Positions 1-62,305 of a stretch of 64,000 bases of DNA are shown piece by piece. The stretch is taken from assembly GCA_002328495.1 (NCBI GenBank), contig DCUJ01000009.1, positions 97,180-161,179 of the forward strand. Direction: 5' to 3'. Source of the DNA: Sulfurospirillum sp. UBA2217 (GTDB lineage: Bacteria > Campylobacterota > Campylobacteria > Campylobacterales > Sulfurospirillaceae). The notes under the pieces were generated by a model, which was not told the origin of the DNA, did not search any database, and worked only from the letters and a program-made list of their open reading frames with translations. Made by a program: the position numbers and the translations under genes. Position 1 is the first letter of the stretch. Every line of letters starts with the position of its first letter.

Positions 1-1730
1 GAGGCTTCATAAATAGCTTCAAATGTTCCAAGTGTTGCGAGTAGCTTTTTTAAGATAGCGTGACCAATTCCTTTGGATGCTAAGAGATTCATCTGTAAAT
101 CATGGCTTCTTTTTTTCTTTTGATGGTAGGCAATGGCAAAACGGTGTGCTTCATCGCGTAAACGTTGGAGAAATTGCAAACGTTTATCACTTGTGGGAAG
201 AGTGAAACAATGCGTACCGTGCCACACACGATCGTTTGCACTGCCTTTGGCACGGTGTGCTTTAGCATCAATTTTTTCTTTGGCAATGGCTAATACAGGG
301 AGGTCATACTGATGCGCTTTTAATAGAGTATGAGCAAGGATTAAGAGGGTTTCACCTCCATCTAAAAGCCACATATCAGGTGGTGGTTCTTTGTCAAAAT
401 CACCCATTCTTCGCTCAAGCATCTCTTTCATCTGAGCGTATTCATCCTTGTGATGTAACGCATAGCGGCGATACGAGGCTTTTTGAAATCCATTTTCCCA
501 AACCACCATAGCCCCCACAGGACTCTCTCCTCCTAAGTGTGAATTGTCAAAAACTTCGATGCGAGAAGGTGTGTGATGCAGGTCAAATAAGGTACAAAGC
601 GATTCACACACATTTTCAGTGCTTTTTGAACGCATGGATTCTAAAAGGGTGAATGCATTTTCTTGTGCTATTTGCGTCAAATAATATTTTTCACCTCGTT
701 TTGGAATACTAATGTCTATTTTCTGAGCAAACTTTTTGCTTAAGAAGTGTTCCATCTCTTTGTGGTCATTAAAATGTTCTGCTACTAAAATATGGTGAGC
801 AACACTTTGATGCATAGGGTTGTAAAATTCAAATAAAGCACGTTGGTACAGCTCGTCTTTATCAAATCCATAGGCATTGTTTACAATAGAATGTGATGTT
901 GAAACGATTTTGCCCTCACGCACAAACAGACGCATAATGCTTGCCATCTTGCCTTCAATAGCAAGCGCAAAAACATCGTAATTTTCCAAACTCAGAAGCT
1001 CGACATGCGTTACATGTAAGGTTTGTTTCAAATGGTTTAAAATATCTCGTAAAATAACAGCTTCTTCAAAATTGAGTTTAAGAGACGCCGCGTGCATTTT
1101 AGCGTTTAATGAAGCAATCAGTGTTCGTGGTTCACGCAATGCCACAAGGGCTTCTTGGACAATGTGTGCATACGCTTGGGGTTCTATTTTCCCTTCACAC
1201 GGGGCTAAACACCGTTTGATTTGGTAAAAAAGACAGGCTTTTTTACCTTGGACGCATCGGCGTTTTTGTACCAAAGGAAATACAAGATATAGAGCATCCA
1301 AGAGGGCTTTGGCTGAGCTTGAGAAAGGTCCAAAATAGCGTCTATTTTTATCATCAATCACTTTACGTGTTATCTCAAAACGCGGGAAACTCTCTGCGAG
1401 ATTGATGGTGATATACGGGTACGTTTTATCGTCACGTAGAAGGATATTATATTTTGGTTTTAATTGTTTGATGAGGGAGTTTTCTAAGATCAGAGCGTCG
1501 TGTTCGCTTTGGACGACAACATACTCTATGCGGTGTATTTCCAAAACCATTTTGTGAATACGGGATGATAAAGTGGGGGCTGGGCTTGGAGGAGTTGTGA
1601 GGCGAAAGTAACTTTTGACACGGTTTTTAAGGACTTTAGCTTTTCCCACGTACAATAACATACCAGTATGGTCGAAAAATTGGTAAATCCCAGCACTTTG
1701 TGGGGCATTTCTAAGCTGTTGGGTGATCAT
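1..1730 (-). CDS. uvrC: Excinuclease ABC subunit C (3' end runs off the left edge; not in the ORF track)
   Basis: Manual translation from ATG at 1730 gives MITQQLRNAPQSAGIYQFFD...LYVGKAKVLKNRVKSYF (GIY-YIG). The same frame carries ENSLIKQLKPKYNILLRDDKTYPYI and, near the left edge, LRDEAHRFAI...KGIG (HhH). Confidence 0.97.
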   Translation of the reverse strand, partial: MITQQLRNAPQSAGIYQFFDHTGMLLYVGKAKVLKNRVKSYFRLTTPPSPAPTLSSRIHKMVLEIHRIEYVVVQSEHDALILENSLIKQLKPKYNILLRDDKTYPYITINLAESFPRFEITRKVIDDKNRRYFGPFSSSAKALLDALYLVFPLVQKRRCVQGKKACLFYQIKRCLAPCEGKIEPQAYAHIVQEALVALREPRTLIASLNAKMHAASLKLNFEEAVILRDILNHLKQTLHVTHVELLSLENYDVFALAIEGKMASIMRLFVREGKIVSTSHSIVNNAYGFDKDELYQRALFEFYNPMHQSVAHHILVAEHFNDHKEMEHFLSKKFAQKIDISIPKRGEKYYLTQIAQENAFTLLESMRSKSTENVCESLCTLFDLHHTPSRIEVFDNSHLGGESPVGAMVVWENGFQKASYRRYALHHKDEYAQMKEMLERRMGDFDKEPPPDMWLLDGGETLLILAHTLLKAHQYDLPVLAIAKEKIDAKAHRAKGSANDRVWHGTHCFTLPTSDKRLQFLQRLRDEAHRFAIAYHQKKKRSHDLQMNLLASKGIGHAILKKLLATLGTFEAIYEA

Positions 1731-2169
1731 GGTGTGTTGAAATTGTCTCTTTGATGGCTTCAAAAAGAGCATTTAATTTTGGGTCTTGGCACGTGTTAGC
1801 AAAGCATCCGCTTGCTCTTTCTGTGTATGTGATGGGTGATGTCGATGGGGTGGGTGTCTCTTTTTCTATTTGGTTCGTGACAAAACTTTGAATTTCTTTT
1901 ACATGTAAGCACTCACACTCTGGGAAATGGATAATAATTTGGCTTAATAGACTCTTTATTAAACTCCGTTTATAATTGAATTCCATTTTGCCAGCGGGAT
2001 GTGAGAGCACAAAAAAGAGTGTCTCATTTTTCGTATAGACAAATCGAACGAGCGTTGTAAAACTTTTAGGAAGCAAACCAAGCAATCGTTCAAAACAGCG
2101 CAAGTGCGCAAATTTTTTCATAGAAGGGTCTTGTACCAAATGAGATATTATACTTTTAGCGTCTTTCAT
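1711..2169 (-). CDS. Conserved hypothetical protein, Cj1247c-like; possible DUF721/DciA-like domain
   Basis: 152-aa ORF overlapping the uvrC start, in the position of the C. jejuni hypothetical gene upstream of uvrC. The LFFVLSHPAGKMEFNY segment resembles DUF721. Confidence 0.75.
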   Translation of the reverse strand: MKDAKSIISHLVQDPSMKKFAHLRCFERLLGLLPKSFTTLVRFVYTKNETLFFVLSHPAGKMEFNYKRSLIKSLLSQIIIHFPECECLHVKEIQSFVTNQIEKETPTPSTSPITYTERASGCFANTCQDPKLNALFEAIKETISTHHDHPTA

Positions 2170-2175
2170 GTGTTG

Positions 2176-2284: not shown

Positions 2285-3739
2285 ATGAAAACATCGTACG
2301 ATGTCGTTATCGTTGGCACGGGTATTGCAGGGCTTCATTGCGCTTTGAACTTACCCAAACACTTAAGTGTGCTTCTTGTTGCCAAAGATTACGCTTGGGA
2401 ATGTAACACCTTTTATGCCCAAGGAGGCGTTGCTGTTGCCAAAGATGAAGCGGATATTGCTTTACATGTAAGCGATACGCTTCATGCGGGAGCAGGGCAT
2501 TGCGTCAAAGAAGCGGTGGATGTGTTGTGCTCCGAGGGACCCAAAGCCATTGCTTCATTGATTAAAAGAGGATTTTGCTTTGATAGCGATGAAAAGGGAG
2601 ACCTTTTATACACCAAAGAAGCAGCACACAGCACCCATCGCATTTTGCATGCAGGCGGTGATGCCACGGGTCGACACATTCATCTGTTTATGATGCAACA
2701 TCTCCCTTTTCCCATTTTATACAATACCCAAGTGACAGATTTATTGATGCATGAAAACACCTGTTATGGCGTTCGTGTATTACACGCAGGAGATATAATT
2801 AATCTTTATGGCAAAAAAGTGGTCATTGCTAGTGGTGGGGTGGGCTCTTTGTATGAGTACCATACGAATGCACGCACCATTAGTGCCGATATGCAAGGTA
2901 TGTGTTTGAGTCATAGCATAGAGCTTGCCGATATGGAGATGATGCAGTTTCATCCTACCGCATTTGTTTTAGGCACCGCGGTGCGTAAACAGTTGCTCAG
3001 CGAATCTTTGCGAGGGGAGGGTGCAAAGGTTGTGGATGATGAGGGCAGACGTTTTGTGTTTGATTATCACCCTGATGGTGAGTTGGCACCTCGTGATGTG
3101 GTGAGTCGTGCTATTTTCGATTATAAGCAAAAAAGTGGCAAAGAGGTTTATTTGGATGTGAGTGATTTTGAAGAGAGTCATTTTCAAAAGCGCTTTCCAA
3201 GCATCTATTTTAATATGAAAAATATCGGTTACAATCTCCCCTCAGAACGTATTCCCATCTCTCCCGCCTTTCACTACTCCATGGGAGGTATTCGTACCAC
3301 TATGAATGGCGAAGTGTTACATGTAAAGCATTTGTATGCCATAGGTGAAGCGGCACATACGGGTGTGCATGGAGCAAATCGCTTGGCGAGTAATTCGCTC
3401 TTAGAAGGATTGGTTTTTTCGTACAGAGCAGCTTTAGATATTCAAGCGACGCTTTCAAACGCATCTTCAGTTATCTCCTTTTCAGAAAAAGAGGCTATAC
3501 TTATTTGCGAAGGCGATAAAATTCTCAAAAATGAACTGCGTCATTTGATGTGGTGTCACGCAGGAATCGTACGCAATGAGCAAAACTTGCAGTTTGCACG
3601 CAAACGGGTAAAAGAAATGCTAGAATTGCCCATTGGAAAATTGTTACGCTTAAGGCTTTTAGTTTCACAAGAGATTATTCAAAGTGCATTAAAACGAAAA
3701 GCGTCATTAGGCGCACATTTCATACAAAAGAGGAGTTGA
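2285..3739 (+). CDS. nadB: L-aspartate oxidase
   Basis: DVVIVGTGIAGL FAD-binding motif, TFYAQGGVA, EAAHSTHRILHAGGDATG, QFHPT, LAPRDVVSRAI, HYSMGG, GVHGANRLASNSLLEGLVF. Start moved to MKTSYD at 2285. Confidence 0.97.
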   Translation: MKTSYDVVIVGTGIAGLHCALNLPKHLSVLLVAKDYAWECNTFYAQGGVAVAKDEADIALHVSDTLHAGAGHCVKEAVDVLCSEGPKAIASLIKRGFCFDSDEKGDLLYTKEAAHSTHRILHAGGDATGRHIHLFMMQHLPFPILYNTQVTDLLMHENTCYGVRVLHAGDIINLYGKKVVIASGGVGSLYEYHTNARTISADMQGMCLSHSIELADMEMMQFHPTAFVLGTAVRKQLLSESLRGEGAKVVDDEGRRFVFDYHPDGELAPRDVVSRAIFDYKQKSGKEVYLDVSDFEESHFQKRFPSIYFNMKNIGYNLPSERIPISPAFHYSMGGIRTTMNGEVLHVKHLYAIGEAAHTGVHGANRLASNSLLEGLVFSYRAALDIQATLSNASSVISFSEKEAILICEGDKILKNELRHLMWCHAGIVRNEQNLQFARKRVKEMLELPIGKLLRLRLLVSQEIIQSALKRKASLGAHFIQKRS

Positions 3740-5096: not shown

Positions 5097-5123
5097 TAGT
5101 TTTGGTTTACATGTAAAAGGAAA

Positions 5124-6662: not shown

Positions 6663-7303
6663 TGCAGACACCTATCTACCTCTTCAGCGATCAAACGTAT
6701 GAAGGGGTAGTTTCCTTACCTCTTTTTGAAATTCTTTTTCTCCCCTTTGGAGTTGACATTAGCCCTTTTGATGCTCTCATCTTTACCTCTAAAAGCAGTG
6801 TTAAAGCACTTGAACAAAGTCATATACCATGGCACAATAAGCGTTGTTATGCCATTGGTGAAGGCACGGCAAAAGCTATTGAAGATGCAGGGGCACAGGT
6901 ATTCTTTACATGTAAAGAATCGTATGGAGATGTATTTGCCCGTGAGCTTGCCCCAATGTTGGGGGGAAAAAAAGTTTTTTTCCCCCGTGCGAAAGAAGTT
7001 GTTTCCCCGTTGTATGAGATTTTATGTGAGGCAGGCATTGATATAATCCAAGCAGTAGTGTATGAAACTGTGTGTCGTTCTTACCCACTCCATGAAGCAC
7101 CTCCTTCTGAAGCCCTTTTGATTTTTGCATCTCCCTCTACAGTGCACTGTTTTTGTAAGAATTTTACGTGGGATGTGAGCTATAAAGCCATTGCTATTGG
7201 TAAAAAAACAGCAGCCGTTTTACCTTCACATGTAAAGGTTTTTTTAGCAGAAAAACAGACGATTGCTTCGTGTATTGATTTGGCAAAGCAAATTAGAAGC
7301 TAA
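6662..7303 (+). CDS. hemD: Uroporphyrinogen-III synthase
   Basis: LIFTSKSSV, YAIGEGTA, VVYET, IFASPSTV, IAIGKKTA. TAATG coupling with the guaA stop. Confidence 0.88.
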   Translation: MQTPIYLFSDQTYEGVVSLPLFEILFLPFGVDISPFDALIFTSKSSVKALEQSHIPWHNKRCYAIGEGTAKAIEDAGAQVFFTCKESYGDVFARELAPMLGGKKVFFPRAKEVVSPLYEILCEAGIDIIQAVVYETVCRSYPLHEAPPSEALLIFASPSTVHCFCKNFTWDVSYKAIAIGKKTAAVLPSHVKVFLAEKQTIASCIDLAKQIRS

Positions 7304-9280: not shown

Positions 9281-11375
9281 AATTTGTGTAGGACTCATTC
9301 TTTTGTTAAGTAGCCTTTGGGCTGTTGAACCTCAAGTACAAGATATTGAACTTTTGGCTCAAAATGTTACAAAAGAGGGAAGTATTGCGCATGCTGTCGG
9401 GAGTGTCGTTGTTTATAGCCCTAAGTATCTTATCACTGCTGATGAGGCATTTTACAACTACGAGTCAGGTGATTTGGAACTGTTTGGCAATATCACGATG
9501 TTAGAGGGTGTGAGTTACGCTTCTCGCAGTGGACATACTAAACTCAATCTTAAAACAGATCACGGTGTTTCTGATCCACTTTTTTTCTTTGACGAAACGG
9601 CAAATTTGTGGTTAAAATGTGACAACGCTATCTTAAGCCCAGAATCTTATATTACCCAAAAAGCAATCGTTTCGAGTTGTAACAGTCAAGACCCAGATTG
9701 GAAAATAGCTTTTAGTACGGGTGAGTACAACAAAGAAGAAAAATGGATGCACTTGTATAACCCTGTTTTTTATGCAGGGGAGACACCTTTTTTCTACCTT
9801 CCCTATTTTTCATTTTCCACGGATACAACAAGGCGAACAGGGCTATTAAGACCGGATATTGGATTTGGAAGTGAAGGACTTTTTTATTTACAACCCATCT
9901 ATTTTGCCCCTGCGGTTGATTGGGATGTAGAAGTGACTCCTCAAATACGAACCAGTAGAGGAGAAGGGATTCATACAACTTACCGTTTTGTAGACTCACC
10001 ATACTCCTCTGGCGAAATCATAACAGGATATTTTAAAGAAAAAAGCGATTATGCAGAAGAAAAAAATTTAAAGCATGATCAACACTATGGTTTCAAAATG
10101 AGTTATGATAGGAGTGCTCTTTTAAGTACGCAAGACAAGACGATAGAAGATGGATTATGGGTAAATTTGAACTATATTAATGATGTGGATTACTATAATA
10201 CTATCAATGATAAAATTAAAGCCTATAACAAGCTAGTGACTTCCCAAGTTAATTATTATGCAAAAAGAGATGAAGATTATATTGGAATTTATGGAAAGTA
10301 TTATATTGATACGTCATTGGTTTCAAATGATACAACATTGCAACAGCTTCCAACGTTTAATTATCATCGATTTGCAAATCCTTTTTTGTTTGATAATTTA
10401 CTCTATTCTATTGACTACAATGCAAAAAATTACAGTCGAGTAGAAGGTGTAACAGCCTTTCAAAATGAAATCAGCACCCCTTTTGCGCTTCATTTTTCAT
10501 TTTTGGAAGATTACTTACATGTAAGCCTATCTGAAAATATCTATATGACGCATGTTTCGTACGGCAATGGCGCAGAAGATGGAAGCTATGGTCAATATTT
10601 TAATAACTATCATAAAGTGAGTATGTATGTAGATCTTGCTAAAGCTTACGATCATTTTTTTCATACCCTTTATTTTGGGATAGAACAAACACTTCCAAGT
10701 TATCGTAAACAACAAGGCACGTGGGACTATTCTTATGGAGCAAATGATTTAATTCCTCTTACCATGGAAGAAAAAAATACGGCTTTCAAATTAAAACAAT
10801 TTTTTTATGATTCTGAAGGTGAAAAAAAAGTAACGCATACACTTAAACAAACCTATTACAGTGAGCATGATTATAAATACGGTGATTTGGAGAATGATGT
10901 TAAGATTTATGTGACACCAGCATTTAGTATTACTAATAATATTTTGTATTCTCATGAGTATGCGCAACTGGCTCGCACCCAAACGTCTGTAACCTATAAA
11001 GATGATATTTACAGTGCAACCGTTCGGTATACTTATCAAGATACCCCTACAAACACAAGTGGTTCTTTGTCGAGCAAGAATTATAACTATTTGACCCTTC
11101 TTGCGAGTACAGAATATTTTGAAAAATTCAATATGTTTGCTTCTGTGAATTATGATTTGAACGATGATGTGTTTAAGTCATGGAGTTTTGGTGTTAAAAA
11201 ATTGAAAAAATGTTGGGATTATTCCATTACATATAAGGATTTAACCCTTCCTAGTCTTACAAGTTCTGGTGCGGATTCGGTTAATCGACAAGGGGTTATG
11301 TTGTTGTTTAATTTTTATCCTTTGGGGGCTATTGATTATGAAATTACGACATCTGAAACAGAACAAAAATTGTAA
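9270..11375 (+). CDS. lptD: LPS-assembly outer-membrane protein LptD
   Basis: Signal peptide, SSC...PDW, PFFYLPYFSF, RRTGLLRP, PIYFA and an aromatic-rich beta-barrel with KCW near the C-terminus. Position matches Cj1252. Confidence 0.92.
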   Translation: MLGKICVGLILLLSSLWAVEPQVQDIELLAQNVTKEGSIAHAVGSVVVYSPKYLITADEAFYNYESGDLELFGNITMLEGVSYASRSGHTKLNLKTDHGVSDPLFFFDETANLWLKCDNAILSPESYITQKAIVSSCNSQDPDWKIAFSTGEYNKEEKWMHLYNPVFYAGETPFFYLPYFSFSTDTTRRTGLLRPDIGFGSEGLFYLQPIYFAPAVDWDVEVTPQIRTSRGEGIHTTYRFVDSPYSSGEIITGYFKEKSDYAEEKNLKHDQHYGFKMSYDRSALLSTQDKTIEDGLWVNLNYINDVDYYNTINDKIKAYNKLVTSQVNYYAKRDEDYIGIYGKYYIDTSLVSNDTTLQQLPTFNYHRFANPFLFDNLLYSIDYNAKNYSRVEGVTAFQNEISTPFALHFSFLEDYLHVSLSENIYMTHVSYGNGAEDGSYGQYFNNYHKVSMYVDLAKAYDHFFHTLYFGIEQTLPSYRKQQGTWDYSYGANDLIPLTMEEKNTAFKLKQFFYDSEGEKKVTHTLKQTYYSEHDYKYGDLENDVKIYVTPAFSITNNILYSHEYAQLARTQTSVTYKDDIYSATVRYTYQDTPTNTSGSLSSKNYNYLTLLASTEYFEKFNMFASVNYDLNDDVFKSWSFGVKKLKKCWDYSITYKDLTLPSLTSSGADSVNRQGVMLLFNFYPLGAIDYEITTSETEQKL

Positions 11376-11674: not shown

Positions 11675-13927
11675 GTGGAATACACACTACATGTAAACAA
11701 CCAAACTGAGATTTATGATATTGGTAAAGTAGCGAAACAAGCAGCGGGAGCTGCGTTGTTGAAAATTAAAAATACAGTTATTTTAGCTACAGTAGCACGT
11801 GACGATAATCAAGTGGCTGAAAATTTTGTACCTTTAACTGTGCAATATATCGAAAAGAGCTATGCGGTAGGAAAAATACCAGGTGGCTACATCAAGAGAG
11901 AGACGAAACCAGGAGATTTTGAAACATTGACTTCACGTATCATCGATAGAAGTCTTCGCCCCCTTTTTCCTAAAGGGTATGCGTATCCAACGCAAATTGT
12001 TATTTTTGTTCTCAGTTGTGATTCAGAAGTGGATTTACAAGTAGCCGCACTGAATGCTGCTAGTGCAGCACTTTATCTTTCCGATATTCCGGTCAATAAA
12101 GCAGTTGCAGGGGTACGTATAGGTTATGTGAATGGTGAATATGTAGTGAACCCTACTAATTCTGTACTTAAAACGAGTGCGCTTGATTTGTATGTCGCTG
12201 GAACCAAAGAAGAATTACTTATGATTGAAATGCGTGCATTGCCTAGTGTTGAAACATTAAGCATGCCAACTATGGCGATTGATCCTATGTTGGATCCTAC
12301 CTTGGCACAGAGTTTGATTGCGAAGCAGTGTGTGAATGAGTTTGATGAAGAGGCTATCTTAAAAGCTATTGATACGGCTCAAAATGCTATTACCCAAGCA
12401 GCAACGGCGTATGAGCAAACCTTCGCCCCTCTTAAAAAAGAGGACGCCCTTTTGGATTATAAAGCAGATTTGGAAAGCGATGCTATCTTTGTTTACATCG
12501 ATGAGTTTTATAAAGAAGAGGTAAACAATGCCATTAATCAAATGGCAAAAAGTGAGCGTGCCAGTGAGCTTAGCCGTATTGTTACTAAAATTTTACAAGA
12601 TGAAGTTGCAACACTTGAGGGATGGAGTAAAGAGCTTGTTAACAGTGTGATTCAGTCCTACAAGAAAAAAGTGGTACGTGAAATGATTATCGAAAAACGT
12701 GTTCGTGCAGATGGACGTGCGCTTAATGAAGTAAGACCCATCACGATAGAAACCAATATTTTACCTATGGCACACGGTTCTTGTCTCTTTACAAGAGGGC
12801 AAACGCAAGCCTTGGTGATTGCAACTTTAGGGAATGATAAAGACGCACAGATGTTTGACCTTTTAACGGAAAAAGGTGGTATTAGCGATACCTTTATGGT
12901 AAATTATAATTTCCCAGGTTTTTCTGTAGGGGAAGCATCGCCGATGAGACCTCCAGGAAGAAGAGAATTAGGTCATGGCAATCTTGCCCGTCGCGCACTA
13001 GACCCCGTACTTGATGTGAACAGACTTCAAACGGTTCGTTTGGTTTCTGAAATTTTAGAATCCAACGGCTCTTCGTCAATGGCTACGGTATGCGGTGGTG
13101 CATTGGCACTTCGAGCAGCTGGAATGGGCATGGAAAAACTGGTGGCTGGAATTGCAATGGGGTTGGTATTTGAAGGTGATAAGCATGCTGTGCTGAGTGA
13201 TATTATGGGGCTTGAAGACCATGATGGTGATATGGATTTTAAAGTTGCTGGGACTATTGATGGTATTACAGCCCTTCAAATGGATATTAAATTAGGTGGT
13301 ATTTCGCGTGATGTGCTTAAAGAAGCATTATATCAAGCGAAAGAAGGACGTGCGCATATCTTAGGAATTATGGAAAAAGCAAGCAGTGAGATTGTCATCA
13401 ACAATTCTATTTTACCAAAGCTTGAGCTTTTTAGTGTAGACCCTTCTAAAATCGTAGATATTATTGGGCAAGCGGGTAAAACGATTCGTGAAATTATCGA
13501 ACGATTTGAAGTATCCATTGACTTAGACCGTGAAAAAGGTGAAGTTAAAATTGCGGGTGAAAATAAAGAAAAAGTAGAAGCCGCCAAAGATCATATTATT
13601 GGGATTGTCAACAAACCTTCTTTTGGTGGACGTGGAGGTCATGGTGGTGGACGCGACCGTGATAGCAGAGGTGCGAGTAGGGAGCGTGAATCAAAACCCG
13701 TACCGACTTTTGTTCAGGATGAAGTGGTTGATGGTGTGGTGAAACGCATTGTTGATTTTGGCGCATTTATTGAACTCCCAGGTGGCATTGATGGGCTTTT
13801 ACATGTATCAAAAATTGCCGATCATCGGGTGGATAAGGTCAGTGATTATTTGGCTTTAGAGCAAAACGTAAAAGTTAAAATTTTGAAGCAAACGGGCAAT
13901 AAAATAGAGTTAGAGCTTCAGCGCTAA
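11675..13927 (+). CDS. pnp: Polyribonucleotide nucleotidyltransferase (PNPase)
   Basis: [61 protein letters not shown], then KH and S1 domains. GTG start with AGGAG RBS. Confidence 0.99.
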
Positions 13928-17646: not shown

Positions 17647-17780
17647 GATACAAAAAGTAACACAAATCTCTTTTTAGGGTTAGATTTTCCTTACATGTAA
17701 GAGTAATATTAAAATATAACATAAATTTTATACCCTATAACGTATGATGGTTTTGAATTTAAAATTTGTAAGGAGTCTCT

Positions 17781-28970: not shown

Positions 28971-29012
28971 TTACATGTAAAGAGATTTGAGAAAATCTCT
29001 TTACATCTTTTT
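28971..29012 (+). terminator. Terminator built from TTACATGTAA after pckA
   Basis: ATGTAAAGAGATTT-gaga-AAATCTCTTTACAT (14-bp stem) followed by CTTTTT. Confidence 0.85.
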
Positions 29013-30425: not shown

Positions 30426-30542
30426 TTACATGTAAGGAGAAAATTCTCCTTACATCTTAGATTTTGCAAAACTCTAGACACGTCTTTAAGGCAAAGCCTT
30501 AAAGACTACGTTAACACTGGGTTCTCTCACGCAGAGTGCCCA
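30426..30542. terminator. Hairpin cluster between convergent argH and hit
   Basis: ATGTAAGGAGA/TCTCCTTACAT (30430-30455), GTCTTTAAGGC/GCCTTAAAGAC (30482-30506) and an imperfect TGGG..CTCT/AGAG..CCCA (30518-30542). Confidence 0.75.
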
Positions 30543-30592
30543 CGCACCCTTGGTGCTTTCCTATCTTGTAAAATGAGTTTTCAATATGTCTA

Positions 30593-40289: not shown

Positions 40290-41458
40290 TGAAGGATGTG
40301 ATGATGCTTCGTGAAAAATTTTCACCTATTTGTTTTCTTTCTGCTTTAGGGGCTGGAGGATTGTCCGTTTCGTTTTACATGTATTTGATGTTTATGATTC
40401 CCCATCGTGGTGTTCCCATGACCACGTTTGACTTTTGGTATCCTACCGTCCTTAAAGGCGATTGGCTATCTGCCGTCAGTGTTGTATGTGCTATAGGTAT
40501 TGTCTATTTTGCGGTGTTGCATTTTAAATTACTCTGGTGGAATATCCAACAATTTAAGCTTTATAAGCAATCTTCTGCTTATCAAATCATGGCAAGTTCC
40601 AATGCAGAAGTGACACTGATGACCATTCCTTTGACGCTTAGCATGACCATCAATGTCTGCTTTGTTTTAGGTGCTTTGTTTGTGCCAAAACTTTGGAGTG
40701 TCGTTGAGTATCTTTTTCCTTTTGCTATTTTAGGATTTTTGATTGCGGGGGCATATGCTTTAAAGATTTTTATGGACTATTTTTCACGACTTATTGTTAA
40801 AGGTGATTTTGATTTTGCCAACAACAATAATCTTTCGCAAATGATTTCTATCTTTGCTTTTGCGATGATAGCGGTTGGTCTTGCTGCACCTGGCGCTATG
40901 AGTCAGTATTTGGTAGTAAATGCCATCGGTATTTTTGCAGCCATTTTCTTTAGTGCCATCGCTATTTTGCTTTTGCTTATCAAGCTTATTTTTGGGTTTC
41001 AAAATATTTTCCAGCATGGTATTGCAAAAGAAGCAAGCCCATCATTGTGGATTATGATTCCTATTTTAACGCTTTTGGGCATCACATATATTCGCATTAG
41101 TTTTGGACTGGATCATCACTTTGACCAAAAATTGGTGAACTCTTCACTGTTTACATTTACTAGCTTGGTCTTTTCATTACAGCTTATTTTTGGATTGATT
41201 GGCTATAAAGTGATGAAGCATATCGGCTATTTTGAAGAGTTTGTAGAATCTTCTAACCGTTCACCCGTAAGCTTTGCACTGATTTGTCCAGGGGTGGCTT
41301 TGATGGTATTTGGTATGTTTTTCATTCACATAGGCCTAGTCCCCAATAATGTTTTAGAAGTCAATACTATTGCTTATTTTATTGTGATGGCACCTTTTAT
41401 GTATGTGCAGTACATCACCATTATCTACTTCTTTAAACTCAAGCGAAAATTTTTTTAA
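40289..41458 (+). CDS. Polytopic membrane protein of unknown function (resembles TsoY-type/TDT-like proteins)
   Basis: About 10 hydrophobic helices. Motifs SPICFLSALGAGGLSVSFYMYLMF, IPLTLSMTINVCF, SLWIMIPILTLLGI, SFALICPGVA. TGATG coupling to serA. Confidence 0.7.
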   Translation: MKDVMMLREKFSPICFLSALGAGGLSVSFYMYLMFMIPHRGVPMTTFDFWYPTVLKGDWLSAVSVVCAIGIVYFAVLHFKLLWWNIQQFKLYKQSSAYQIMASSNAEVTLMTIPLTLSMTINVCFVLGALFVPKLWSVVEYLFPFAILGFLIAGAYALKIFMDYFSRLIVKGDFDFANNNNLSQMISIFAFAMIAVGLAAPGAMSQYLVVNAIGIFAAIFFSAIAILLLLIKLIFGFQNIFQHGIAKEASPSLWIMIPILTLLGITYIRISFGLDHHFDQKLVNSSLFTFTSLVFSLQLIFGLIGYKVMKHIGYFEEFVESSNRSPVSFALICPGVALMVFGMFFIHIGLVPNNVLEVNTIAYFIVMAPFMYVQYITIIYFFKLKRKFF

Positions 41459-41636: not shown

Positions 41637-42983
41637 ATGCGCTTGCTTTTTTTTCTATTTTTTTCACTTTGTATCTCTTATGCGACTGAGCAGATAACCC
41701 TCTCACAAGCACTAGAGAAAGTACGCCAGAGCAATCTTGAACTCTCTATTGCAACATTAGATGAAGACATTGCTCAGTTGGAGCAAAAGGTTGCGGAAGG
41801 TCAAACGTGGGGAAGCCTTGATTTAACCCAAAGTGCCCTTCGCTCAAACGATGCGCTCTCTGTCTTTGGCTTTAAATTACAATCTCGCGAAGCAACCTTT
41901 GGTGATTTTGGTTTTTCACAGTTTGATTCTACCAACCCAAATGTCTTACATGTAGTGCCCAATGACTTAAATGAGCCACAGGTGAGAAATCATTTTCAAA
42001 CCGCATTAGAGTACACCATCCCGCTTTATACGGGTGGAAGAATGCAAGCCCATCAAAAGATAGCGCATGCCATCAAGGTGATTAAGACTTTGAGTAAAGA
42101 AGAGCTTCTAGTGCAAAAACAGTTTGAGGTTAAAAAGACATTTCATACCCTCTCACTCTTACACTACCATATAGCACAGCTTCGCATTGTTGCCTCCAAT
42201 GTTGCTAAAATCGAACAGATGACTCAAGCGATGCTTGAAGAAGGTTACGCTAAAAACGTGGATCTTTTGGAAGTACAAGCACGCAAAAGTGATGTACAGA
42301 GGCTGTTACATCAAAGCGAATCCAATCAAAAACTCTTATACCATTTTCTCTCTTTTTTGCTTCAAATGCCCATTGAGGGAATCACTTTAGTGGAGGAAGA
42401 TGGTACTTTTGATGTAAAAAGTGAAACTATGGTGCTTGAAAGCAATAGTGCTATTCAAAAAGCACTCAAGGGCTTGGATATTTCTAAAATGCAGATTGAC
42501 CTCGCACACAGTGCATTTTTACCGCAAATTGGAGCGTTTGCCAGTTATGGAAGCAGTGATAATCACTTTTTAAATGATTTTGAAGAGAAGCAAAGTTATA
42601 CCGTAGGGCTTCAAATGCGTTGGAATATTTTACGTGGTGGGATCGATAAAAACACTTTGGAAAAATCACGTGTTGAACATCTTAAAGCACAACTTCAATT
42701 ACGTTTAGCACAAGAATCAACCCTTTTACGATGGCGCAAACTCAAAACGCAGATAGACAATGATAGTTTTGAAATTGAGAGTTTGAAAAAAGAGCTTCGT
42801 TTAGCAGAAGCCATTTATGAAAATTATGCAGGGCGATATCGTGAAAAATTGGTTTCTATTCATGAAGTCTTACTTAAGCAATCCGATGAGATTGGAAAAC
42901 GCTTGAAATTGCGAGAATTACAAAACAGACGCAATGAAACATTTTTTGAACTTGAAACACTTATCAGTAAGGAGATTTTGTGA
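41637..42983 (+). CDS. TolC-family outer-membrane efflux protein
   Basis: Signal peptide, ITLSQAL..V..SN, YTIPLYTGG, AFLPQIG, WNILRGG. Confidence 0.9.
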   Translation: MRLLFFLFFSLCISYATEQITLSQALEKVRQSNLELSIATLDEDIAQLEQKVAEGQTWGSLDLTQSALRSNDALSVFGFKLQSREATFGDFGFSQFDSTNPNVLHVVPNDLNEPQVRNHFQTALEYTIPLYTGGRMQAHQKIAHAIKVIKTLSKEELLVQKQFEVKKTFHTLSLLHYHIAQLRIVASNVAKIEQMTQAMLEEGYAKNVDLLEVQARKSDVQRLLHQSESNQKLLYHFLSFLLQMPIEGITLVEEDGTFDVKSETMVLESNSAIQKALKGLDISKMQIDLAHSAFLPQIGAFASYGSSDNHFLNDFEEKQSYTVGLQMRWNILRGGIDKNTLEKSRVEHLKAQLQLRLAQESTLLRWRKLKTQIDNDSFEIESLKKELRLAEAIYENYAGRYREKLVSIHEVLLKQSDEIGKRLKLRELQNRRNETFFELETLISKEIL

Positions 42984-43792
42984 AATCATTACATGTAAAG
43001 AGGTTGGTATTTTTTTTATTATGGAGTGCAAGCCTTCAAGCAGCTTCCATTACCTTAAGTGGCGTGGTGACATCGGACAATGAAAAGAGCATTGCGAGCC
43101 GTTATATGGGCTATATCAAAGAGGTTTTGGTAGATGAGGGTAGTGTGGTAAAAAAAGGCGATTTGCTTTACACCATAGACTCCAATGAAATCGATACCGC
43201 CAAAGTACAGGTGGAACAAAGCATCGCCCAAGCAGAGCTTAACGTTCAAATGTACGAAAACCAATACGCCAATGCCTTGCTCAATTTAGAGCGCCATCAA
43301 AGGCTTTTGCAACAAGATATGGTGTCAAAATTTGATGTCGAAAATCTTGAACTCTCTTCTAAAAATCTCAAAGCTATGCTAGAGATTGCTAAAAAACAAC
43401 GTCTACAAGCCCATGCAAAACTCAAAGAAGTTCACAATCAATACCACTACCTCGATGTGCGCTCACCAAGTGATGGTGTTGTGATTGCTAAAAAAATCAG
43501 AGCAGGGGAAATGGCATTACCTGGGGTACCTGCATTGGTGTTGGTTGACCTTGCACATGTGAAAATTCTAGCCGAAGTCTCTGAAAATCATCTCTCCTCA
43601 CTTAAACTTGGCGATAAAGTCTCTTTTTCCATTCGTTCTATCTCACACCAAGGGGAAGGAAAGGTTGTGGCGATTGTCCCCAATTCCAATGCACTCTCTC
43701 ATAGTTTTAAAGTAAAAATTGCATTTGATACCACACCGCTCATTTATCCAGGGATGTATGCTGAAGTGGTCTTTGATAGGTTAAATCCATGA
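42980..43792 (+). CDS. RND periplasmic adaptor (membrane fusion protein)
   Basis: IASRYMGYI..V.VDEGS.VKKGDLL lipoyl halves, coiled coil, VRSPSDGVV, IYPGMYAEV. Confidence 0.93.
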   Translation: MKSLHVKRLVFFLLWSASLQAASITLSGVVTSDNEKSIASRYMGYIKEVLVDEGSVVKKGDLLYTIDSNEIDTAKVQVEQSIAQAELNVQMYENQYANALLNLERHQRLLQQDMVSKFDVENLELSSKNLKAMLEIAKKQRLQAHAKLKEVHNQYHYLDVRSPSDGVVIAKKIRAGEMALPGVPALVLVDLAHVKILAEVSENHLSSLKLGDKVSFSIRSISHQGEGKVVAIVPNSNALSHSFKVKIAFDTTPLIYPGMYAEVVFDRLNP

Positions 43793-47031: not shown

Positions 47032-47070
47032 TTTACATGTAAGAAGTTTTTTTATCTTCTTACATGTAAA
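47032..47070. terminator. Bidirectional terminator whose two arms are each TTACATGTAA
   Basis: TTTACATGTAAGAAG-9 nt-CTTCTTACATGTAAA, between convergent genes. Confidence 0.85.
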
Positions 47071-49035: not shown

Positions 49036-50649
49036 ATGGCATTTACGACCATAAAAGGTAAACTAACGCTTTTGTTGCTGGCTTTAGTTCTCGGGTTTGG
49101 CGCTGTGAGTTTTCAAGTAGTTAAAGCTATTAACGATGGCAAAATGGCGGCAGTGAGACTCTCAGGCATCGGTGATGTAGACGCGGGATTGTCTGCTTGT
49201 ATGATGGAACTTCGAGGGTTTCAGCTTATGTGTAATCCGAAACGTTTGGAATCGTTTGAAGTACAGTATAGAAAGGCGGTCAAACATATTGAAATACTTA
49301 ATGCCATTTTAACGTCCAAAGCCAATCAAGAACGCATCGTAAAGCTTCAAAAAGATGTCCTTGCATGGTATCAACTCAATCTCCCTGGTGTTGAAATGCT
49401 TAAAAAATACGGCACAGAGGTCAATACGCCTTCATTTGCATTTGATCATAAAGCAGATTTTGAGCTTTTAGGCTCTTTAACCCAACAATCTGCCACACTG
49501 TTTGATGATATTTTAAAACAAGTAGATGCATTGGATGAGAATGTTAAAAAGAATAACTTTGCTCGTTTAGAAACCAATAAAGTTATGGTAGAAGTCACTT
49601 TGGGTGTGGTCTTCTTGTTTGTATTGATCCTTAGCATAGCCATCATGCGCTCCATTCAAAAATCGGTTTCAAAAGCTAAAGAGGGCATTGAGACGATGCG
49701 CCACAATAAAGCCTTACATGTAAAGCTTGAAACGGGTTCAAAAGATGAGATGAATGACATCGTACAGATGCAAAATTTGCTTTTTGCTGACATCAATAGT
49801 GCTATGATTGGTGCTAAAAATACTGCACATGAAAATGCATCTGTAGCAGAAGAACTCTCTTCTACGAGTTTAGAAATCGGTAAACGTGCTGAAGAAGAAG
49901 CCAATGTTGTGGCGCAAACGACACAAGAAGCCAAGGTGGTAGCCGTACAGATTCAAGAGGCAAGTGAGCAAGCCCAAGAGGTGAAAGAGATGACACTCAA
50001 GGCGCAAAACAGTCTTTCTTTAGCCCAAAAACTTTTGGGTGAGACCATCGCGCAACTTGAAGCCACTGCATCCGCAGAGACACAGATGAACGAACGACTA
50101 AATCACCTCACCACCGATGCCGCACAGGTCAAGTCTGTTTTAGAAGTGATTGGCGATATCGCAGACCAAACCAATCTTTTAGCACTGAACGCTGCCATCG
50201 AGGCCGCACGTGCGGGTGAGCATGGACGTGGGTTTGCCGTTGTCGCTGATGAAGTGCGCAAATTGGCGGAGCGAACACAAAAAAGTTTATTGGAAACCAA
50301 TGCCACGGTCAATGTCATTGTCCAATCCATCAGCGATATCAGCGGTGAGATGAATGTCAATGCAAAACGCATTACCGATTTGGCAGAGTTTTCCGATAAA
50401 GTAACCATTCAAACCCAAGATGCGGTAAGTGTGTTAGGTCAAAGTGTTGTTGCTACCGAAGGTGTCGTACGCAAAGCGGAGCAGAATGTGAAGCTTATCA
50501 ATGAATCTGTGGTTGATAAAATGGGCACAATCAACACCCTCTCAAGTTCCAATGCCAGAAGTGTCGAAGAGATAGCTGCTGCATCAGAGCATTTGGCACG
50601 TCTAGCAGGCAATCTCAGTAACACGCTTTCTCAGTTTAAAACCGCTTAA
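49036..50649 (+). CDS. Methyl-accepting chemotaxis protein
   Basis: Two TM helices, HAMP-like segment, [41 protein letters not shown]. Confidence 0.97.
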
Positions 50650-50655
50650 AAAGCG

Positions 50656-50686
50656 TTACATGTAAAGAGTGATTTTCACTCTTTAC
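50656..50686. terminator. Bidirectional terminator between MCP and mutS-HNH, starting from TTACATGTAA
   Basis: GTAAAGAGTGA-ttt-TCACTCTTTAC, overlapping the mutS stop codon. Confidence 0.8.
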
Positions 50687-54962: not shown

Positions 54963-56176
54963 ACGTAGCGATTATCGGAGGAGGAGCGTCGGGACTGGTC
55001 TGTGCTATTGAAGCAGCACGAGGGGGACATCGTGTCAGCGTGTTTGAAAAAAATGCCAAACTGGGGCGCAAAATCTTAGCTACGGGAAATGGCAAGTGCA
55101 ATATCTCCAATCTTCACTTAAATCCCACTCGCTATCATGGGGAATTTCCACAGTTTGTCACGCCTATTTTAAAACGCTTTAATACCCTTACATGTAAAGA
55201 TTTTTTTCGCACACTTGGTCTTGAGATGCGTGAGGGTGAAGCGGGAAGACTTTACCCCATGAGCCATCATGCGTCAAGTGTTGTGGATATCTTGGTGCAT
55301 GAGGCTAGAGAGCTTGGTGTGAAGTTTTTGTGTGAAAGCGAAGTGAAACGCATAGCACACAAAGGTGAGCAGTTTGAGTTACATGTAAACGACCAAACCT
55401 CCCTTTTTGATGCGTGTGTCATCGCCTCAGGAAGCTTTGCGTATCCGAGTTTAGGAAGCTCTGGAAGTGGCTATGCGTTTGCAAAATGCTTGGGTCATAC
55501 CGTGATAGAACCCTACCCAACGTTGGTGCAACTCTTAAGCGATGAAGCACACCTAAGCCTTGCCAATGGGGTCAAGATAGACGCTGGCGTAGAGCTGTTT
55601 GTGAGTGGTACGATGAGGCAACGGGTGCAAGGCGATGTCTTGTTTACCACCTATGGACTCTCAGGTTCTGCTATCTTAGATATCAGCCGTGCTGCCTCAC
55701 GCGCATGTGTCGAAAATGAGCCGTCGTGGGTCGTGCTTGATCTGCTCCCAACCTTTAGCAAAGAAGCCGTGCAATCCTTACTTCAAAAACGCTTAGCCTA
55801 CGCAGGGAAAAAATCACTCATTTTATGGCTAGAGGGCATCATTCCTAAAAAATTGGCACTTTTTCTCATTCATGCTAACACATTAGAACACCTCACATCC
55901 GCCTCACTCCTAAGCCCAAAAGAGCTTAAAAGACTCTGCTTTTCGCTGAAGGCATTACGCTTACATGTAAAGGGAACCAAAGGCTTTGAAAGTGCCGAAG
56001 TGTGCTCTGGAGGCGTGGATGTCAGAGAAGTGGATGAAAAAAGTTTGATGTCAAAAAAAGTGAAAAATCTCTACTTTTGTGGGGAAGTCTTAGACATCGA
56101 TGGGGATTGCGGAGGGTTCAATCTGCACTTTGCGTGGGGTTCGGGCTACGTGGTAGGACAGAGCATCAAAGCGTAG
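54959..56176 (+). CDS. HI0933/YhiN-family flavoprotein oxidoreductase
   Basis: IIGGGASGL, GRKILATGNGKCNISN, GRLYP, LFTTYGLSGSAIL, AEVCSGGV, GEVLDIDGDCGGFNLHFAWGSG. Confidence 0.95.
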   Translation: MNVAIIGGGASGLVCAIEAARGGHRVSVFEKNAKLGRKILATGNGKCNISNLHLNPTRYHGEFPQFVTPILKRFNTLTCKDFFRTLGLEMREGEAGRLYPMSHHASSVVDILVHEARELGVKFLCESEVKRIAHKGEQFELHVNDQTSLFDACVIASGSFAYPSLGSSGSGYAFAKCLGHTVIEPYPTLVQLLSDEAHLSLANGVKIDAGVELFVSGTMRQRVQGDVLFTTYGLSGSAILDISRAASRACVENEPSWVVLDLLPTFSKEAVQSLLQKRLAYAGKKSLILWLEGIIPKKLALFLIHANTLEHLTSASLLSPKELKRLCFSLKALRLHVKGTKGFESAEVCSGGVDVREVDEKSLMSKKVKNLYFCGEVLDIDGDCGGFNLHFAWGSGYVVGQSIKA

Positions 56177-57396: not shown

Positions 57397-57729
57397 TTAC
57401 TTTGAAATTGTGATGAGTTTATAATAACCCAAGAAGAGAAGGGAGGCACATTTTAAGCAATAGTAAAAAAAATCTTTTGGTGCGACATAGAGGATGATTC
57501 GAAACTCTTTTATGGTACGAGCTTTGAGCTGTAGCCAACAAAATCGAAACAAAGAAAAACGATTTTTGCGGTGGAGTAAAAATGCTGTGTGCGGATAAGA
57601 GGCGATAGCCATCATCTCTTCAATGCGATTACTCACCAAAAGAGTGCCTTTTTGCGCGCTTACATGTAAGGCTTCGTGCGTGGACATGATAAGCGGTTTA
57701 AGACGTCCCTTTTCAAAGCAATACAGCAT
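57397..57729 (-). CDS. Hypothetical protein
   Basis: 110 aa. ATG directly after the upstream gene's stop, with AAGGAG RBS. Confidence 0.6.
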   Translation of the reverse strand: MLYCFEKGRLKPLIMSTHEALHVSAQKGTLLVSNRIEEMMAIASYPHTAFLLHRKNRFSLFRFCWLQLKARTIKEFRIILYVAPKDFFYYCLKCASLLFLGYYKLITISK

Positions 57730-59232: not shown

Positions 59233-59270
59233 AATGGATAGTAAGCCTACATGTAAGCTTACTATCCATT
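59233..59270. terminator. 14-bp hairpin whose loop is the motif variant CTACATGTAA
   Basis: AATGGATAGTAAGC-ctacatgtaa-GCTTACTATCCATT. Confidence 0.85.
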
Positions 59271-60908: not shown

Positions 60909-62305
60909 TGTTTGTCTCCTAATAGATTTTTTTCATTCCAACCGCTTCCGAGTGCTTTGAAAAGTTCTGCTTGCGAAACAAGGTAAGCTTGTTGGGATGT
61001 TGTGGCATTGAGGCGTGCCATAAGTAGCCCTTTTTGTGCGTCCAAAACTTCAAGATAACTGATGGAACCCGCATTAAAGCGTTTTGTACTGATGTGAAGT
61101 GATCTTTCGTAAGCCGCAATTTCATCTTCATGTGTACGCACTTTTTCTTTTAGAATTGCATGGCGTCCAAGGGCATCGCTAATCTCTTTGTAAGCTTTTT
61201 TTACAGTTTGTTCGTAACTTTCCAGTGCGATTTTAAGCTCTGTTTCGGAAATGCTAACACGTGCTTTAATGCGTCCAAAATCAAAAATAGGCACAGACAA
61301 AGAGGGACCAAAACTCCATCGATTTGCACTGGATTGTAAGATGTTATCTAGGCTTTCGCTTTGTTGTCCATAACTTCCCGTTAAACTAATACTTGGAAAA
61401 TAGGCGGCTTTTTCTACTCCGATGAGTGCATTTTTACTTTTTAAGGTAAAGAGGGCTTCTTGAATGTCAGGACGACTTTCTAAGATAGAAGAGGGAATGC
61501 CTTTGGGAATAGTGATGGCTTTTGGCAATGCGTTGATTCGTGTTGCGTTCGCTTCAAAGAATGCTTTAGGACTTTTCCCTAATAGGAGCAAAAGAGCATT
61601 TTCTTGTAGTTTTTTGCTCTCTAATAGAGTCGATTGTGTGGTGAGTGTACTAAGGTATTGTGCCTTTGCTTGGGCAACAAGCAATTCATTGATCGTTCCA
61701 CGTTCGTGTTGTTTGAGACGAAATTCATAGGCAGCTTTATAGGTTTGAATGGTTTCATCTACGATATTGAGGCGTACAGACAAGGAAACGAGGTTAAGGT
61801 AGGATGAAATGGTATCATGAATCAATGTATTTTTAACCGTTTGTGCGGCAGAAGCTGAAGCTAAGTAAAGCTCCCAGTTGGACTCCGCTTGTGAGCTTAA
61901 TTTTCCCCAAAAATCGATTTCATAGCTTAGATTTAATGCCATGGCATTATCGGTATACAACGAGCGGTTATGCTGATACGTTTCAGCACTGGTTTGTTGT
62001 CGTGTTGAGCCTGCATTTGCGTTGAGGCTTGGGTACAGTGTGGCATCACTCAGACCATATGCTTGTTTGGCTTTAAGAATGCGAAGTGCGGAGAGTTTGA
62101 TGTCATAATTGGATTGTAATGCCTCAGCAACGAGTAAATTGAGTGACGCATCACCAAAATTTTCCCACCAAGTGGCATTTACATGTAAGGTATTCTCTTC
62201 GCTTATAGGCAGTTCCATCGAAGGCACATTGAGGTCTGGCTTAAGGGAGCATCCACCTAAAAAGAGCAAGGAAGAGAGAGAAAAAATTAAGATATTACGC
62301 TGCAT
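60905..62305 (-). CDS. NodT/CmeC-family efflux outer-membrane lipoprotein
   Basis: Lipobox LFLGGC, WWENFGD, SYEIDFWGK, LESRPDIQ, AAYFPSISLTG, VPIFDFGR, YLEVLDAQ, LFKALGSGW. Confidence 0.93.
   Translation of the reverse strand: MQRNILIFSLSSLLFLGGCSLKPDLNVPSMELPISEENTLHVNATWWENFGDASLNLLVAEALQSNYDIKLSALRILKAKQAYGLSDATLYPSLNANAGSTRQQTSAETYQHNRSLYTDNAMALNLSYEIDFWGKLSSQAESNWELYLASASAAQTVKNTLIHDTISSYLNLVSLSVRLNIVDETIQTYKAAYEFRLKQHERGTINELLVAQAKAQYLSTLTTQSTLLESKKLQENALLLLLGKSPKAFFEANATRINALPKAITIPKGIPSSILESRPDIQEALFTLKSKNALIGVEKAAYFPSISLTGSYGQQSESLDNILQSSANRWSFGPSLSVPIFDFGRIKARVSISETELKIALESYEQTVKKAYKEISDALGRHAILKEKVRTHEDEIAAYERSLHISTKRFNAGSISYLEVLDAQKGLLMARLNATTSQQAYLVSQAELFKALGSGWNEKNLLGDKQ

Follow-up and report, generated by a model that had tools for sequence, protein, structure and literature searches.

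The cyanobacterial palindrome HIP1 (highly iterated palindrome 1), GCGATCGC, has been described together with alternate highly iterated palindromes (Elhai 2015, PMC4390886; Xu, Lawrence and Durand 2018, PMC5861425). Its conservation and its link with a methylase have been reported (PMC5861425, PMC4390886), and methylated HIP1 raises transformation (bioRxiv 10.1101/2024.09.10.611283; PMC13756078). Nevertheless, the reason why HIP1 saturates cyanobacterial genomes has been open for ~30 years, and the hints toward transformation are only recent. Uptake sequences, namely the uptake signal sequences (USS) of Pasteurellaceae and the DNA uptake sequences (DUS) of Neisseriaceae, shift tripeptide frequencies and lie at poorly conserved residues (Findlay and Redfield 2009, PMC2817400). 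Here, we analyzed a 10-bp perfect palindrome, TTACATGTAA (hereafter, the word), in a 64,000-nt stretch of Sulfurospirillum sp. UBA2217 (GCA_002328495.1, contig DCUJ01000009.1, 97,180-161,179, forward strand; hereafter, the window). The word is very probably a lineage-specific one that is held at the DNA level, and the Leu-His-Val (LHV) and Thr-Cys-Lys (TCK) tripeptides recurring in the encoded proteins are its passive by-products.

The window contained 26 exact copies of the word compared to 0.17 expected, with a maximum of one copy in dinucleotide-preserving shuffles, and 33 copies of its 8-bp core, TACATGTA, compared to 0.72 expected. In the whole genome (2.42 Mb in 13 contigs, ~40% G+C; coded G000), 934 exact copies were counted (0.39 per kb) against ~3 expected under an order-3 Markov model, which is an ~300-fold excess; the commonest 10-mers of the genome were the word and its one-base extensions. 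Genes were called genome-wide using a home-made caller based on open reading frames (ORFs) and codon scores, which missed a few short genes and over-extended some starts, so the genic and intergenic counts and the N-terminal test given below are approximate. The 934 copies were divided into 417 read as LHV, 230 read as TCK, 272 intergenic, 11 serving as a stop codon, and 4 at gene edges. Thus, 70% (647) were genic and 29% were intergenic, although only ~7% of the genome is intergenic. The 26 copies of the window comprised 14 LHV (phase 0), 3 TCK (phase 1), and 9 intergenic ones. A first-pass annotation of the window had listed 17 intragenic exact copies with the same 14 and 3 readings, and these were reproduced exactly, in the genes that it named, on the window ORFs. 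It had also excluded the third phase, TAC-ATG-TAA, because it contains a stop codon. Indeed, the 11 exact copies in this phase genome-wide all end a gene with their TAA, and the window contained only broken variants, in which TAA was changed to TAT or TAC (32694 and 40375; peptide YMY). The LHV:TCK ratio was 14:3 in the window and 1.8:1 in the genome, a non-significant difference (binomial P = 0.09). Since a process acting on DNA only would yield a ratio of 1:1, the excess of LHV suggests that protein-level selection screens out new cysteines.

Next, we analyzed the imprint of the word on the proteome. LHV occurred 597 times compared to 121 expected by amino-acid composition (4.9-fold), and TCK occurred 239 times compared to 32 expected (7.5-fold). 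The six most over-represented tripeptides, TCK, FTC, LHV, TCN, HVK, and LTC, were all readings of the extended word. The codons of LHV were locked as the first-pass annotation had proposed: out of 48 possible triplets, TTA-CAT-GTA coded 522 of the 597 LHV (87%), far apart from the 3.1% predicted from codon usage, and ACA-TGT-AAR coded 227 of the 239 TCK. When the word-coded copies were subtracted, LHV showed ~0.6 times its expectation, as did the neighbouring tripeptides LHI, IHV, and VHL. Of the His and Cys residues in the proteome, ~3% and 3.5%, respectively, were word-coded. As these residues owe their existence to a DNA word, LHV and TCK "motifs" in these proteins should not be taken as functional, which is a caution for annotation and for studies of protein evolution. 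The variable N-termini in which copies had been noticed, MNALHV, VKSLHV, and VEYTLHV, were all borne out. However, a preference for N-termini did not appear genome-wide, as 20 copies were located in the first 10 codons compared to 18.6 expected and the copies were spread evenly along genes.

It might be supposed that selection acts on LHV and TCK themselves, for instance as metal-binding or processing motifs, and that the word is simply the way in which they are usually encoded. In favour of this are the special chemistry of His and Cys and the N-terminal LHV of AroA, which was kept in 8 of 8 species compared. Nevertheless, one word encodes two unrelated peptides, close to a third of its copies encode no peptide at all, and a single codon triplet prevails in LHV. 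Comparison with other genomes further contradicted peptide selection. As an outgroup, 400 kb of genome G039, which belongs to the same order (family f16, genus g16) and has 6 copies of the word genome-wide, was compared. At word sites, G039 matched L/H/V at 0.33/0.17/0.40, compared to 0.60/0.49/0.52 for ordinary L/H/V in the same proteins, and matched T/C/K at 0.25/0.25/0.50, compared to 0.50/0.49/0.55 for ordinary T/C/K. The entire tripeptide was shared at 2 of 30 LHV sites and at 1 of 16 TCK sites, so the peptides were not conserved at these sites in a relative lacking the word.

Synonymous positions were then scored at sites where two species have the identical amino acid, by asking whether the codon was also identical. 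In the word-rich species G019, G017, G010, and G024, TTA and GTA were retained at 0.79-1.00 inside the word but at 0.24-0.48 outside it. In contrast, G011 and G001, both word-poor congeners, and the outgroup G039 retained these codons equally within and beyond the word, and the word-poor congeners often kept the peptide while its codons drifted. Synonymous positions are thus frozen in word-rich species and drift like the background in nested lineages that have lost the word, indicating that the pressure is on DNA and not on protein, as the first-pass annotation had inferred by analogy. The exception it had reported in DJ-1, where LHV is coded TTG-CAC-GTT, proved genuine: G011 has the same coding, whereas G019, G017, and G010 have a perfect word at this very position, showing that the peptide exists with and without the DNA word. 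Moreover, word sites were orthologous across Sulfurospirillum species whose proteins are merely 60-90% identical. Four independent tests, namely the intergenic share, the outgroup residues, the synonymous retention, and DJ-1, therefore favour DNA-level pressure, and selection on the peptides is refuted; we give it practically no credence.

The expectation that word sites lie at unconserved residues was true in part. The second NadB site was hypervariable in outgroups, whereas at residue 86 of NadB, His was invariant in all relatives (LHI, PHI, or FHI in outgroups), and the word needed a conservative change of Ile to Val plus synonymous changes. Some word sites were thus pre-adapted rather than unconserved. 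As for the origin of the copies, 46 of 50 word sites aligned with the outgroup were gap-free, indicating that copies arose by substitution and not by insertion. Footprints or insertions of a small mobile element, such as a miniature inverted-repeat transposable element (MITE) or a repetitive extragenic palindrome (REP), or target-site duplications, could account for many dispersed identical copies, and the intergenic pairs described below look like REP hairpins. However, in addition to the gap-free alignments, conservation stopped ~2 nt on either side of the word, the reading frame was preserved in every case, and orthologous sites differed from the word by point changes. This explanation is refuted for the genic copies, and we consider it highly improbable on the whole.

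The copies and variants of the word in the window, placed on the window ORFs, are given below with their phase and peptide context. Gene names were checked by Pfam and confirmed except for the LptD-like ORF, which had no Pfam hit.

1010..1019, exact copy in UvrC; phase 0, T-LHV-T
1899..1908, exact copy in a 152-aa ORF (1711-2169, minus strand); phase 0, C-LHV-K
2462..2471, exact copy in NadB; phase 0, A-LHV-S; word present here in 17 of 25 congeners
3317..3326, exact copy in NadB; phase 0, V-LHV-K; outgroups variable (EKF, GEF, PNV, DGM, PGL)
5107..5116, intergenic exact copy, 11 bp past the stop codon of a 450-aa gene
6906..6915, exact copy in HemD; phase 1, F-TCK-E
10515..10524, exact copy in the 724-aa LptD-like ORF; phase 0, Y-LHV-S
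11687..11696, variant CTACATGTAA in PNPase, codons 5-7; T-LHV-N
13799..13808, variant TTACATGTAT in PNPase; phase 0, L-LHV-S
17691..17700, intergenic exact copy, 45 bp past a stop codon
20853..20862, intergenic exact copy, 26 bp past the DctM stop codon
25509..25518, exact copy in OadA; phase 0, L-LHV-K
28971..28980, intergenic exact copy, 4 bp past a stop codon
30369..30378, variant CTACATGTAA in a 461-aa gene; phase 1, S-TCK-Q
30426..30435, intergenic exact copy, 5 bp past a stop codon; hairpin with a downstream degenerate copy
32694..32703, variant TTACATGTAC in the stop-containing phase; A-YMY-K, TAA changed to TAC
34380..34389, exact copy in AroA, codons 4-6; MNALHV; the sole window site kept in 8 of 8 compared species, word-poor ones included
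35049..35058, exact copy in AroA; phase 0, P-LHV-R; a gain particular to this genome, as 7 of 7 relatives differ
36770..36779, exact copy in ribosomal protein S1 (RpsA); phase 1, I-TCK-V; ATAACATGCAAAG here in three other species
40375..40384, variant TTACATGTAT in the stop-containing phase; F-YMY-L
41946..41955, variant TTACATGTAG in an outer-membrane factor (OMF) gene; phase 0, V-LHV-V
42989..42998, exact copy in the membrane-fusion protein (MFP), codons 4-6; V/M-KSLHV
47033..47069, two intergenic exact copies (47033 and 47060, 27 bp apart) as an inverted pair, starting 4 bp past the RND-C stop codon
48242..48793, plus strand, DJ-1 gene; LHV coded TTG-CAC-GTT, not the word
49714..49723, exact copy in MCP; phase 0, A-LHV-K
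50656..50665, intergenic exact copy between the convergent MCP and MutS-HNH genes, 7 bp past the MCP stop codon
53619..53628, intergenic exact copy in a divergent spacer, 9 bp upstream of MutS-HNH
55188..55197, exact copy in the HI0933-like gene; phase 1, L-TCK-D
55379..55388, exact copy in the HI0933-like gene; phase 0, E-LHV-N
55961..55970, exact copy in the HI0933-like gene; phase 0, R-LHV-K
57660..57669, exact copy in a 110-aa ORF (57397-57729, minus strand); phase 0, A-LHV-S; may actually be intergenic, since this ORF has no Pfam hit
59247..59256, intergenic variant CTACATGTAA
62179..62188, exact copy in OMF (60905-62383, minus strand); phase 0, T-LHV-N

Other features of the window were also recorded. 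Rfam matches were a purD RNA motif at 7404-7534, upstream of a 422-aa gene at 7560, and a tRNA at 14378-14459. At 30469-30598 lies an intergenic repeat of ~110-130 bp, of which this genome has at least 11 copies, with more in G002 and G024. The repeat, unmatched in Rfam, includes an internal hairpin as well as CTCACGCAG, which is the hyperabundant word of G039. The RND transporter at 43789-47029 consists of two half-size ORFs, and the first of them matched positions 3-497 of 1021 of the Pfam ACR_tran profile. The MutS protein (50683-53610, minus strand, 975 aa) has domains I, II, III, and V, and HNH was matched weakly at its C-terminus; copies of the word lie on either side of its gene (50656 and 53619).

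The extent of the word was analyzed from its variants and flanks. Single-mismatch variants within the 8-bp core were at background, and variation was confined to positions 1 and 10 (T > C > G > A): the position 1/10 variants numbered 161, 65, and 17 genome-wide, whereas each internal variant numbered 3-22. The deviations are therefore biased to the outermost positions, as in HIP1. The fuller form of the word is C-T-TTACATGTAA-A-G with A/T-rich shoulders, around the strict core TACATGTA. Genic and intergenic copies shared the same flanks, with C at -2, T at -1, and A-rich positions from -4 to -8, mirrored on the opposite side, and the flank information was gone beyond ~2-3 nt. The hexamer ACATGT, counted outside the TACATGTA context, was ~2-fold under-represented in this genome and 3-fold under-represented in the outgroup G039 (0.10 per kb), so the word has expanded against avoidance of its own core.

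The two longest stretches free of the word, G000:C8:279713-310091 (30 kb) and C3:216359-242102 (26 kb), were low-GC islands (0.34 G+C) with type I-like N6 methylase genes, and both were probably acquired recently. Over the longest word-free stretches together, such islands were at 0.31-0.34 G+C and included type I restriction genes. The ribosomal-protein operon (C4:36663-52009, 15 kb) was also free of the word. These observations indicate that the word accumulates in resident DNA, and only where proteins tolerate it.

The intergenic copies showed a distinct placement. Genes contained 0.29 copies of the word per kb, compared to 1.0 in divergent and 3.4 in convergent spacers, and intergenic copies were at a median of 24 bp behind the nearest stop codon. 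As the word is its own reverse complement, each close pair forms a hairpin; 24 intergenic pairs were located within 60 bp of each other, most of them 19-26 bp apart with an excess at 19-22 bp, giving stems of ~12 bp, often with T runs after them (in the window, 47033/47060). Such a placement, with an 11-fold higher density in convergent spacers than in genes, several hairpins followed by T runs, and a palindrome with symmetric A/T-rich shoulders, would suit a binding site of an abundant chromosomal protein, for instance in the nucleoid, or a termination or RNA-level signal, in which case chromosome structure or 3'-end formation would be under selection instead of DNA exchange. However, the genic copies, which are the majority, were uniform in their relative positions, and a lone copy would give just a 5-bp A/T stem. 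The overall spacing of copies was essentially exponential (coefficient of variation, CV, 1.08), with short-range phasing only in the hairpin pairs, and no candidate protein was found. We therefore regard a binding or termination role as an unlikely cause of the DNA-level pressure.

The distribution of the word was surveyed in related genomes. The 27 further genomes of Sulfurospirillum species that were searched all had it, with copy numbers of 49 to 1496. Among 401 Campylobacterales genomes, it was abundant in two places only, the Sulfurospirillum family and part of family f16. Within the former, genus g1 was rich, g19 had 22-614 copies, g20 had 446 and 663, and g21 had 265, whereas genus g18 had merely 5-23. 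In family f16, genus g63 had 367, 589, 145, and 48 copies, and three g16 genomes had 340, 96, and 32. All remaining Campylobacterales families had at most 10 copies.

Word-poor congeners offered a view of the loss of the word. In a single-gene NadB tree with moderate support, G011 and G020 (19 and 30 copies per Mb) and G001 (107 per Mb) were nested in clades with 430-500 per Mb. At the word sites of this genome, G011 was 1-2 mismatches away from the word in 39 of 95 cases and matched worst at third codon positions, whereas the distances of G039 at the same sites peaked at 7 mismatches. No replacement word was found in G011. Near-miss remnants with third-position decay and no replacement word indicate that the G011/G020 lineage has lost maintenance of the word, which is decaying neutrally while the peptide is partly retained.

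Family f16 points to a separate origin. In G133 of this family, 400 kb contained 62 copies, which differed slightly in their flank (CTTACATGTAAG) and were read as LHV and TCK at a ratio of 32:11. Over 218 orthologous proteins, only 1 of its sites coincided with those of this genome (47 + 16 sites compared). As the sites barely coincide, the word in family f16 reflects an independent accumulation and not shared ancestry. The outgroup G039, which belongs to this family as well, has its own asymmetric hyperabundant word, CTCACGCA. Its 8-9-mer bCTCACGCAr occurred 219 times on both strands in 400 kb (C1:1-400000) compared to ~10 expected, with unconserved flanks, and looks like an uptake sequence. 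This 8-9-mer was absent from G133, which has TTACATGTAA instead. Separately, the 14-mer CTTTACATGTAAAG was found in a few IMG/VR viral contigs, which had 3-6 copies of the word within 4-12 kb, some of them within 120 bp. The notion that these are Sulfurospirillum phages was dropped, since their G+C of 28-48% does not point that way.

We next searched for genes that accompany the word. A D12-class N6-adenine methylase of ~325 aa was found in a conserved locus lacking a restriction gene, and is thus an orphan; the order of the locus, which lies on contig C32 in the sister species G024, is response regulator, kinase, methylase, transglutaminase-like, MerT-like, and DEAD helicase genes. Over its full length, it was 51% identical to the methylase at the hpyIM locus of a 1.67-Mb Helicobacter-type genome. 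The latter lies between an ABC-transporter/HAD pair and cysE-atpE-pnp, which corresponds to the cysE-(iceA)-hpyIM locus of H. pylori. hpyIM methylates CATG (PMC4450513), and CATG is the centre of the word. The orphan methylase is accordingly predicted to be M.HpyAI-like and CATG-specific. A large protein database named it only generically as "DNA adenine methylase", and no homologue was found in the PDB at E < 0.01. Among 22 genus genomes that are at least 90% complete, the 14 with the methylase had 147-512 copies of the word per Mb (median 436), whereas the 8 without it had 19, 30, 61, 85, 107, 153, 386, and 415 per Mb (median 107; Mann-Whitney P = 4e-4, uncorrected for phylogeny, with roughly four or five independent losses). 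In family f16, a methylase homologue was present in 5 of 7 word-rich genomes compared to 3 of 31 word-poor ones (P = 0.002).

This association bears on a repair or gene-conversion drive that has no function but makes or restores the word, with the peptides as collateral. Elhai proposed methylation-dependent short-patch mismatch repair for HIP1 (PMC4390886), and biased gene conversion would act likewise. Such a drive is consistent with a word density that follows the orphan methylase and its presumed target at the word centre, with the decay in methylase-less lineages, with deviations at the outermost positions as for HIP1 (PMC4390886), and with the MutS-HNH fusion encoded in the window. However, a process that converts near-words should deplete them, and internal one-mismatch variants were not depleted (ratios mostly 0.5-1.4; C-to-T 3.5). 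Copies were also found at the same orthologous positions across species rather than re-created elsewhere, and Xu et al. take such site conservation of HIP1 as selection (PMC5861425). Furthermore, this genome keeps the word without the methylase, and MutS-HNH is also encoded in the word-poor G011 (88% identity). We consider that a drive is rather improbable as the cause.

Several other candidates were tried and rejected. MutS-HNH as a driver was 84-88% identical in 5 of 5 species compared, including the word-poor G011 and G001. Three C5 cytosine methylases are encoded here, and none has an orthologue in five word-poor congeners; however, the orphan-looking one was also missing from all other word-rich species, so these are strain-specific restriction-modification genes. 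A Vsr-type depletion of the C-to-T neighbour of the word was rejected, as 20 copies were observed compared to 5.7 expected. Window genes absent from word-poor species (OadB, a TRAP transporter, and unannotated ORFs) included none that was plausibly related.

Among the causes considered, a transformation or self-DNA tag, acting in uptake and/or recombination, is ranked first, although by analogy and as a possibility that we hold at less than even confidence; a role of this type has lately been put forward for methylated HIP1 in cyanobacteria. The presence of ComEC in nearly all genus genomes would make such a role feasible. More tentatively still, the word with an adenine-methylated CATG could be a palindromic self-recognition tag for natural transformation, common to Sulfurospirillaceae and part of a second Campylobacterales family, in which loss of the marking or reading system would lead to neutral decay as in G011/G020. 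The share of belief that remains after a tag, a binding role, and a drive is left unassigned. For such a tag, a symmetric, probably dimeric, factor would read the word as double-stranded DNA, and its central CATG would be methylated in most species by the conserved orphan M.HpyAI-like methylase. Copies just past stop codons may have been co-opted as hairpins. Irrespective of its cause, the word is confined within genes to the two TAA-free phases and so forces (x)LHV(K/S/N) or (F/L)TCK. New copies arise by point substitution, mainly at protein positions that tolerate change or are already similar, and once formed, all ten bases are kept fixed, including the synonymous ones.

Several observations weigh against a methylated self-recognition tag. 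This genome lacks the entire methylase locus, and an assembly gap does not explain this, since the flanking fatty-acid synthesis genes lie well inside contig C9. Even so, its word copies are under full synonymous constraint compared to its sister species G024, and it has lost only 2-3 of ~24 shared word sites. The word-rich genomes G310, G158, G149, and G319 also lack the methylase, and a homologue of ~50% identity is present in many genomes without enrichment of the word (genus g18 and the Helicobacter-like g54). The CATG specificity is itself a prediction from the 51% identity to the hpyIM-locus enzyme. ComEC, encoded in 27 of 28 genus genomes, was rejected as a discriminator because word-poor species have it too. 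In addition, no sign of even spacing of the copies was seen in this 13-contig assembly (CV 1.08). The association of the methylase with the word therefore stands, although the enzyme is neither required nor sufficient. Should it participate, another factor reads the ten bases.

A literature search retrieved no published description of TTACATGTAA in bacteria, nor of a Sulfurospirillum palindrome or methylome. The phenomenon is a HIP1/USS-like hyperabundant word in Campylobacterota; its kind is already known, whereas this word and this clade were found in no paper retrieved. The present analysis contributes four points: congeners that maintain the word differ at synonymous sites from those that do not; an orphan hpyIM-like methylase goes with the word, though imperfectly; a second family accumulated the word independently; and intergenic copies lie shortly past stop codons. 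The word is thereby an independent case in another phylum, with natural controls that HIP1 research lacks: word-losing congeners with neutral decay, genomes with and without the candidate methylase, and a second family having the same word at different sites. If the tag reading is true, a HIP1-type system would have evolved independently for a second time, in non-phototrophs that can be cultured.

Similar to HIP1, the word is a short perfect palindrome that is over-represented hundreds-fold in genes and spacers, its sites are conserved between related genomes beyond neutral expectation, and its one-base deviations gather at the outer positions. In both cases, some lineages in the clade have lost the word, and there is no evident peptide or RNA role. 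An orphan methylase tends to accompany HIP1; here, a candidate one, with the inner core as its presumed target, shows an imperfect association. However, it is an analogue and not HIP1 itself, as it is a different, A/T-rich word of 10 bp in the phylum Campylobacterota. Unlike HIP1, it contains a stop codon in one phase and therefore gives two peptides only, its density is lower (0.39 per kb), and its candidate methylase would be of an N6-methyladenine CATG type and is absent from this genome. HIP1 was reported with a periodicity of 10-90 kb; for the word, spacing was analyzed at short range, where it was random.

Similar to USS and DUS, the word is lineage-specific at ~0.4-1 copy per kb, shifts tripeptide frequencies, prefers poorly conserved residues, and is rare in low-GC islands. 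Inverted pairs of it, folding into hairpins that resemble terminators, are enriched past the ends of genes; in both, related lineages bear different words. In contrast to these asymmetric sequences, it is a perfect palindrome and is linked to a methylase, and its effect on the proteome is bigger (5-7.5-fold), given that uptake sequences about double their tripeptides (PMC2817400). Sulfurospirillum also has no known uptake bias, receptor, or competence phenotype. Compared to REP- or MITE-type repeats, no longer unit is inserted and the flanks are unconserved past ~2-3 nt. Within the same phylum, the orphan methylase CtsM of Campylobacter jejuni makes the RAATTY mark, and DNA uptake depends on this methylation. 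To our knowledge, RAATTY is neither hyperabundant nor protein-imprinting. The CtsM/RAATTY pair, which identifies self DNA for transformation in C. jejuni, resembles the present case in having an orphan N6-adenine methylase and a short palindromic site, whereas no experiment ties the Sulfurospirillum word to uptake. If the word is indeed a tag, highly iterated palindromes, uptake sequences, and the methyl-dependent uptake of Campylobacter would be joined in one mechanism.

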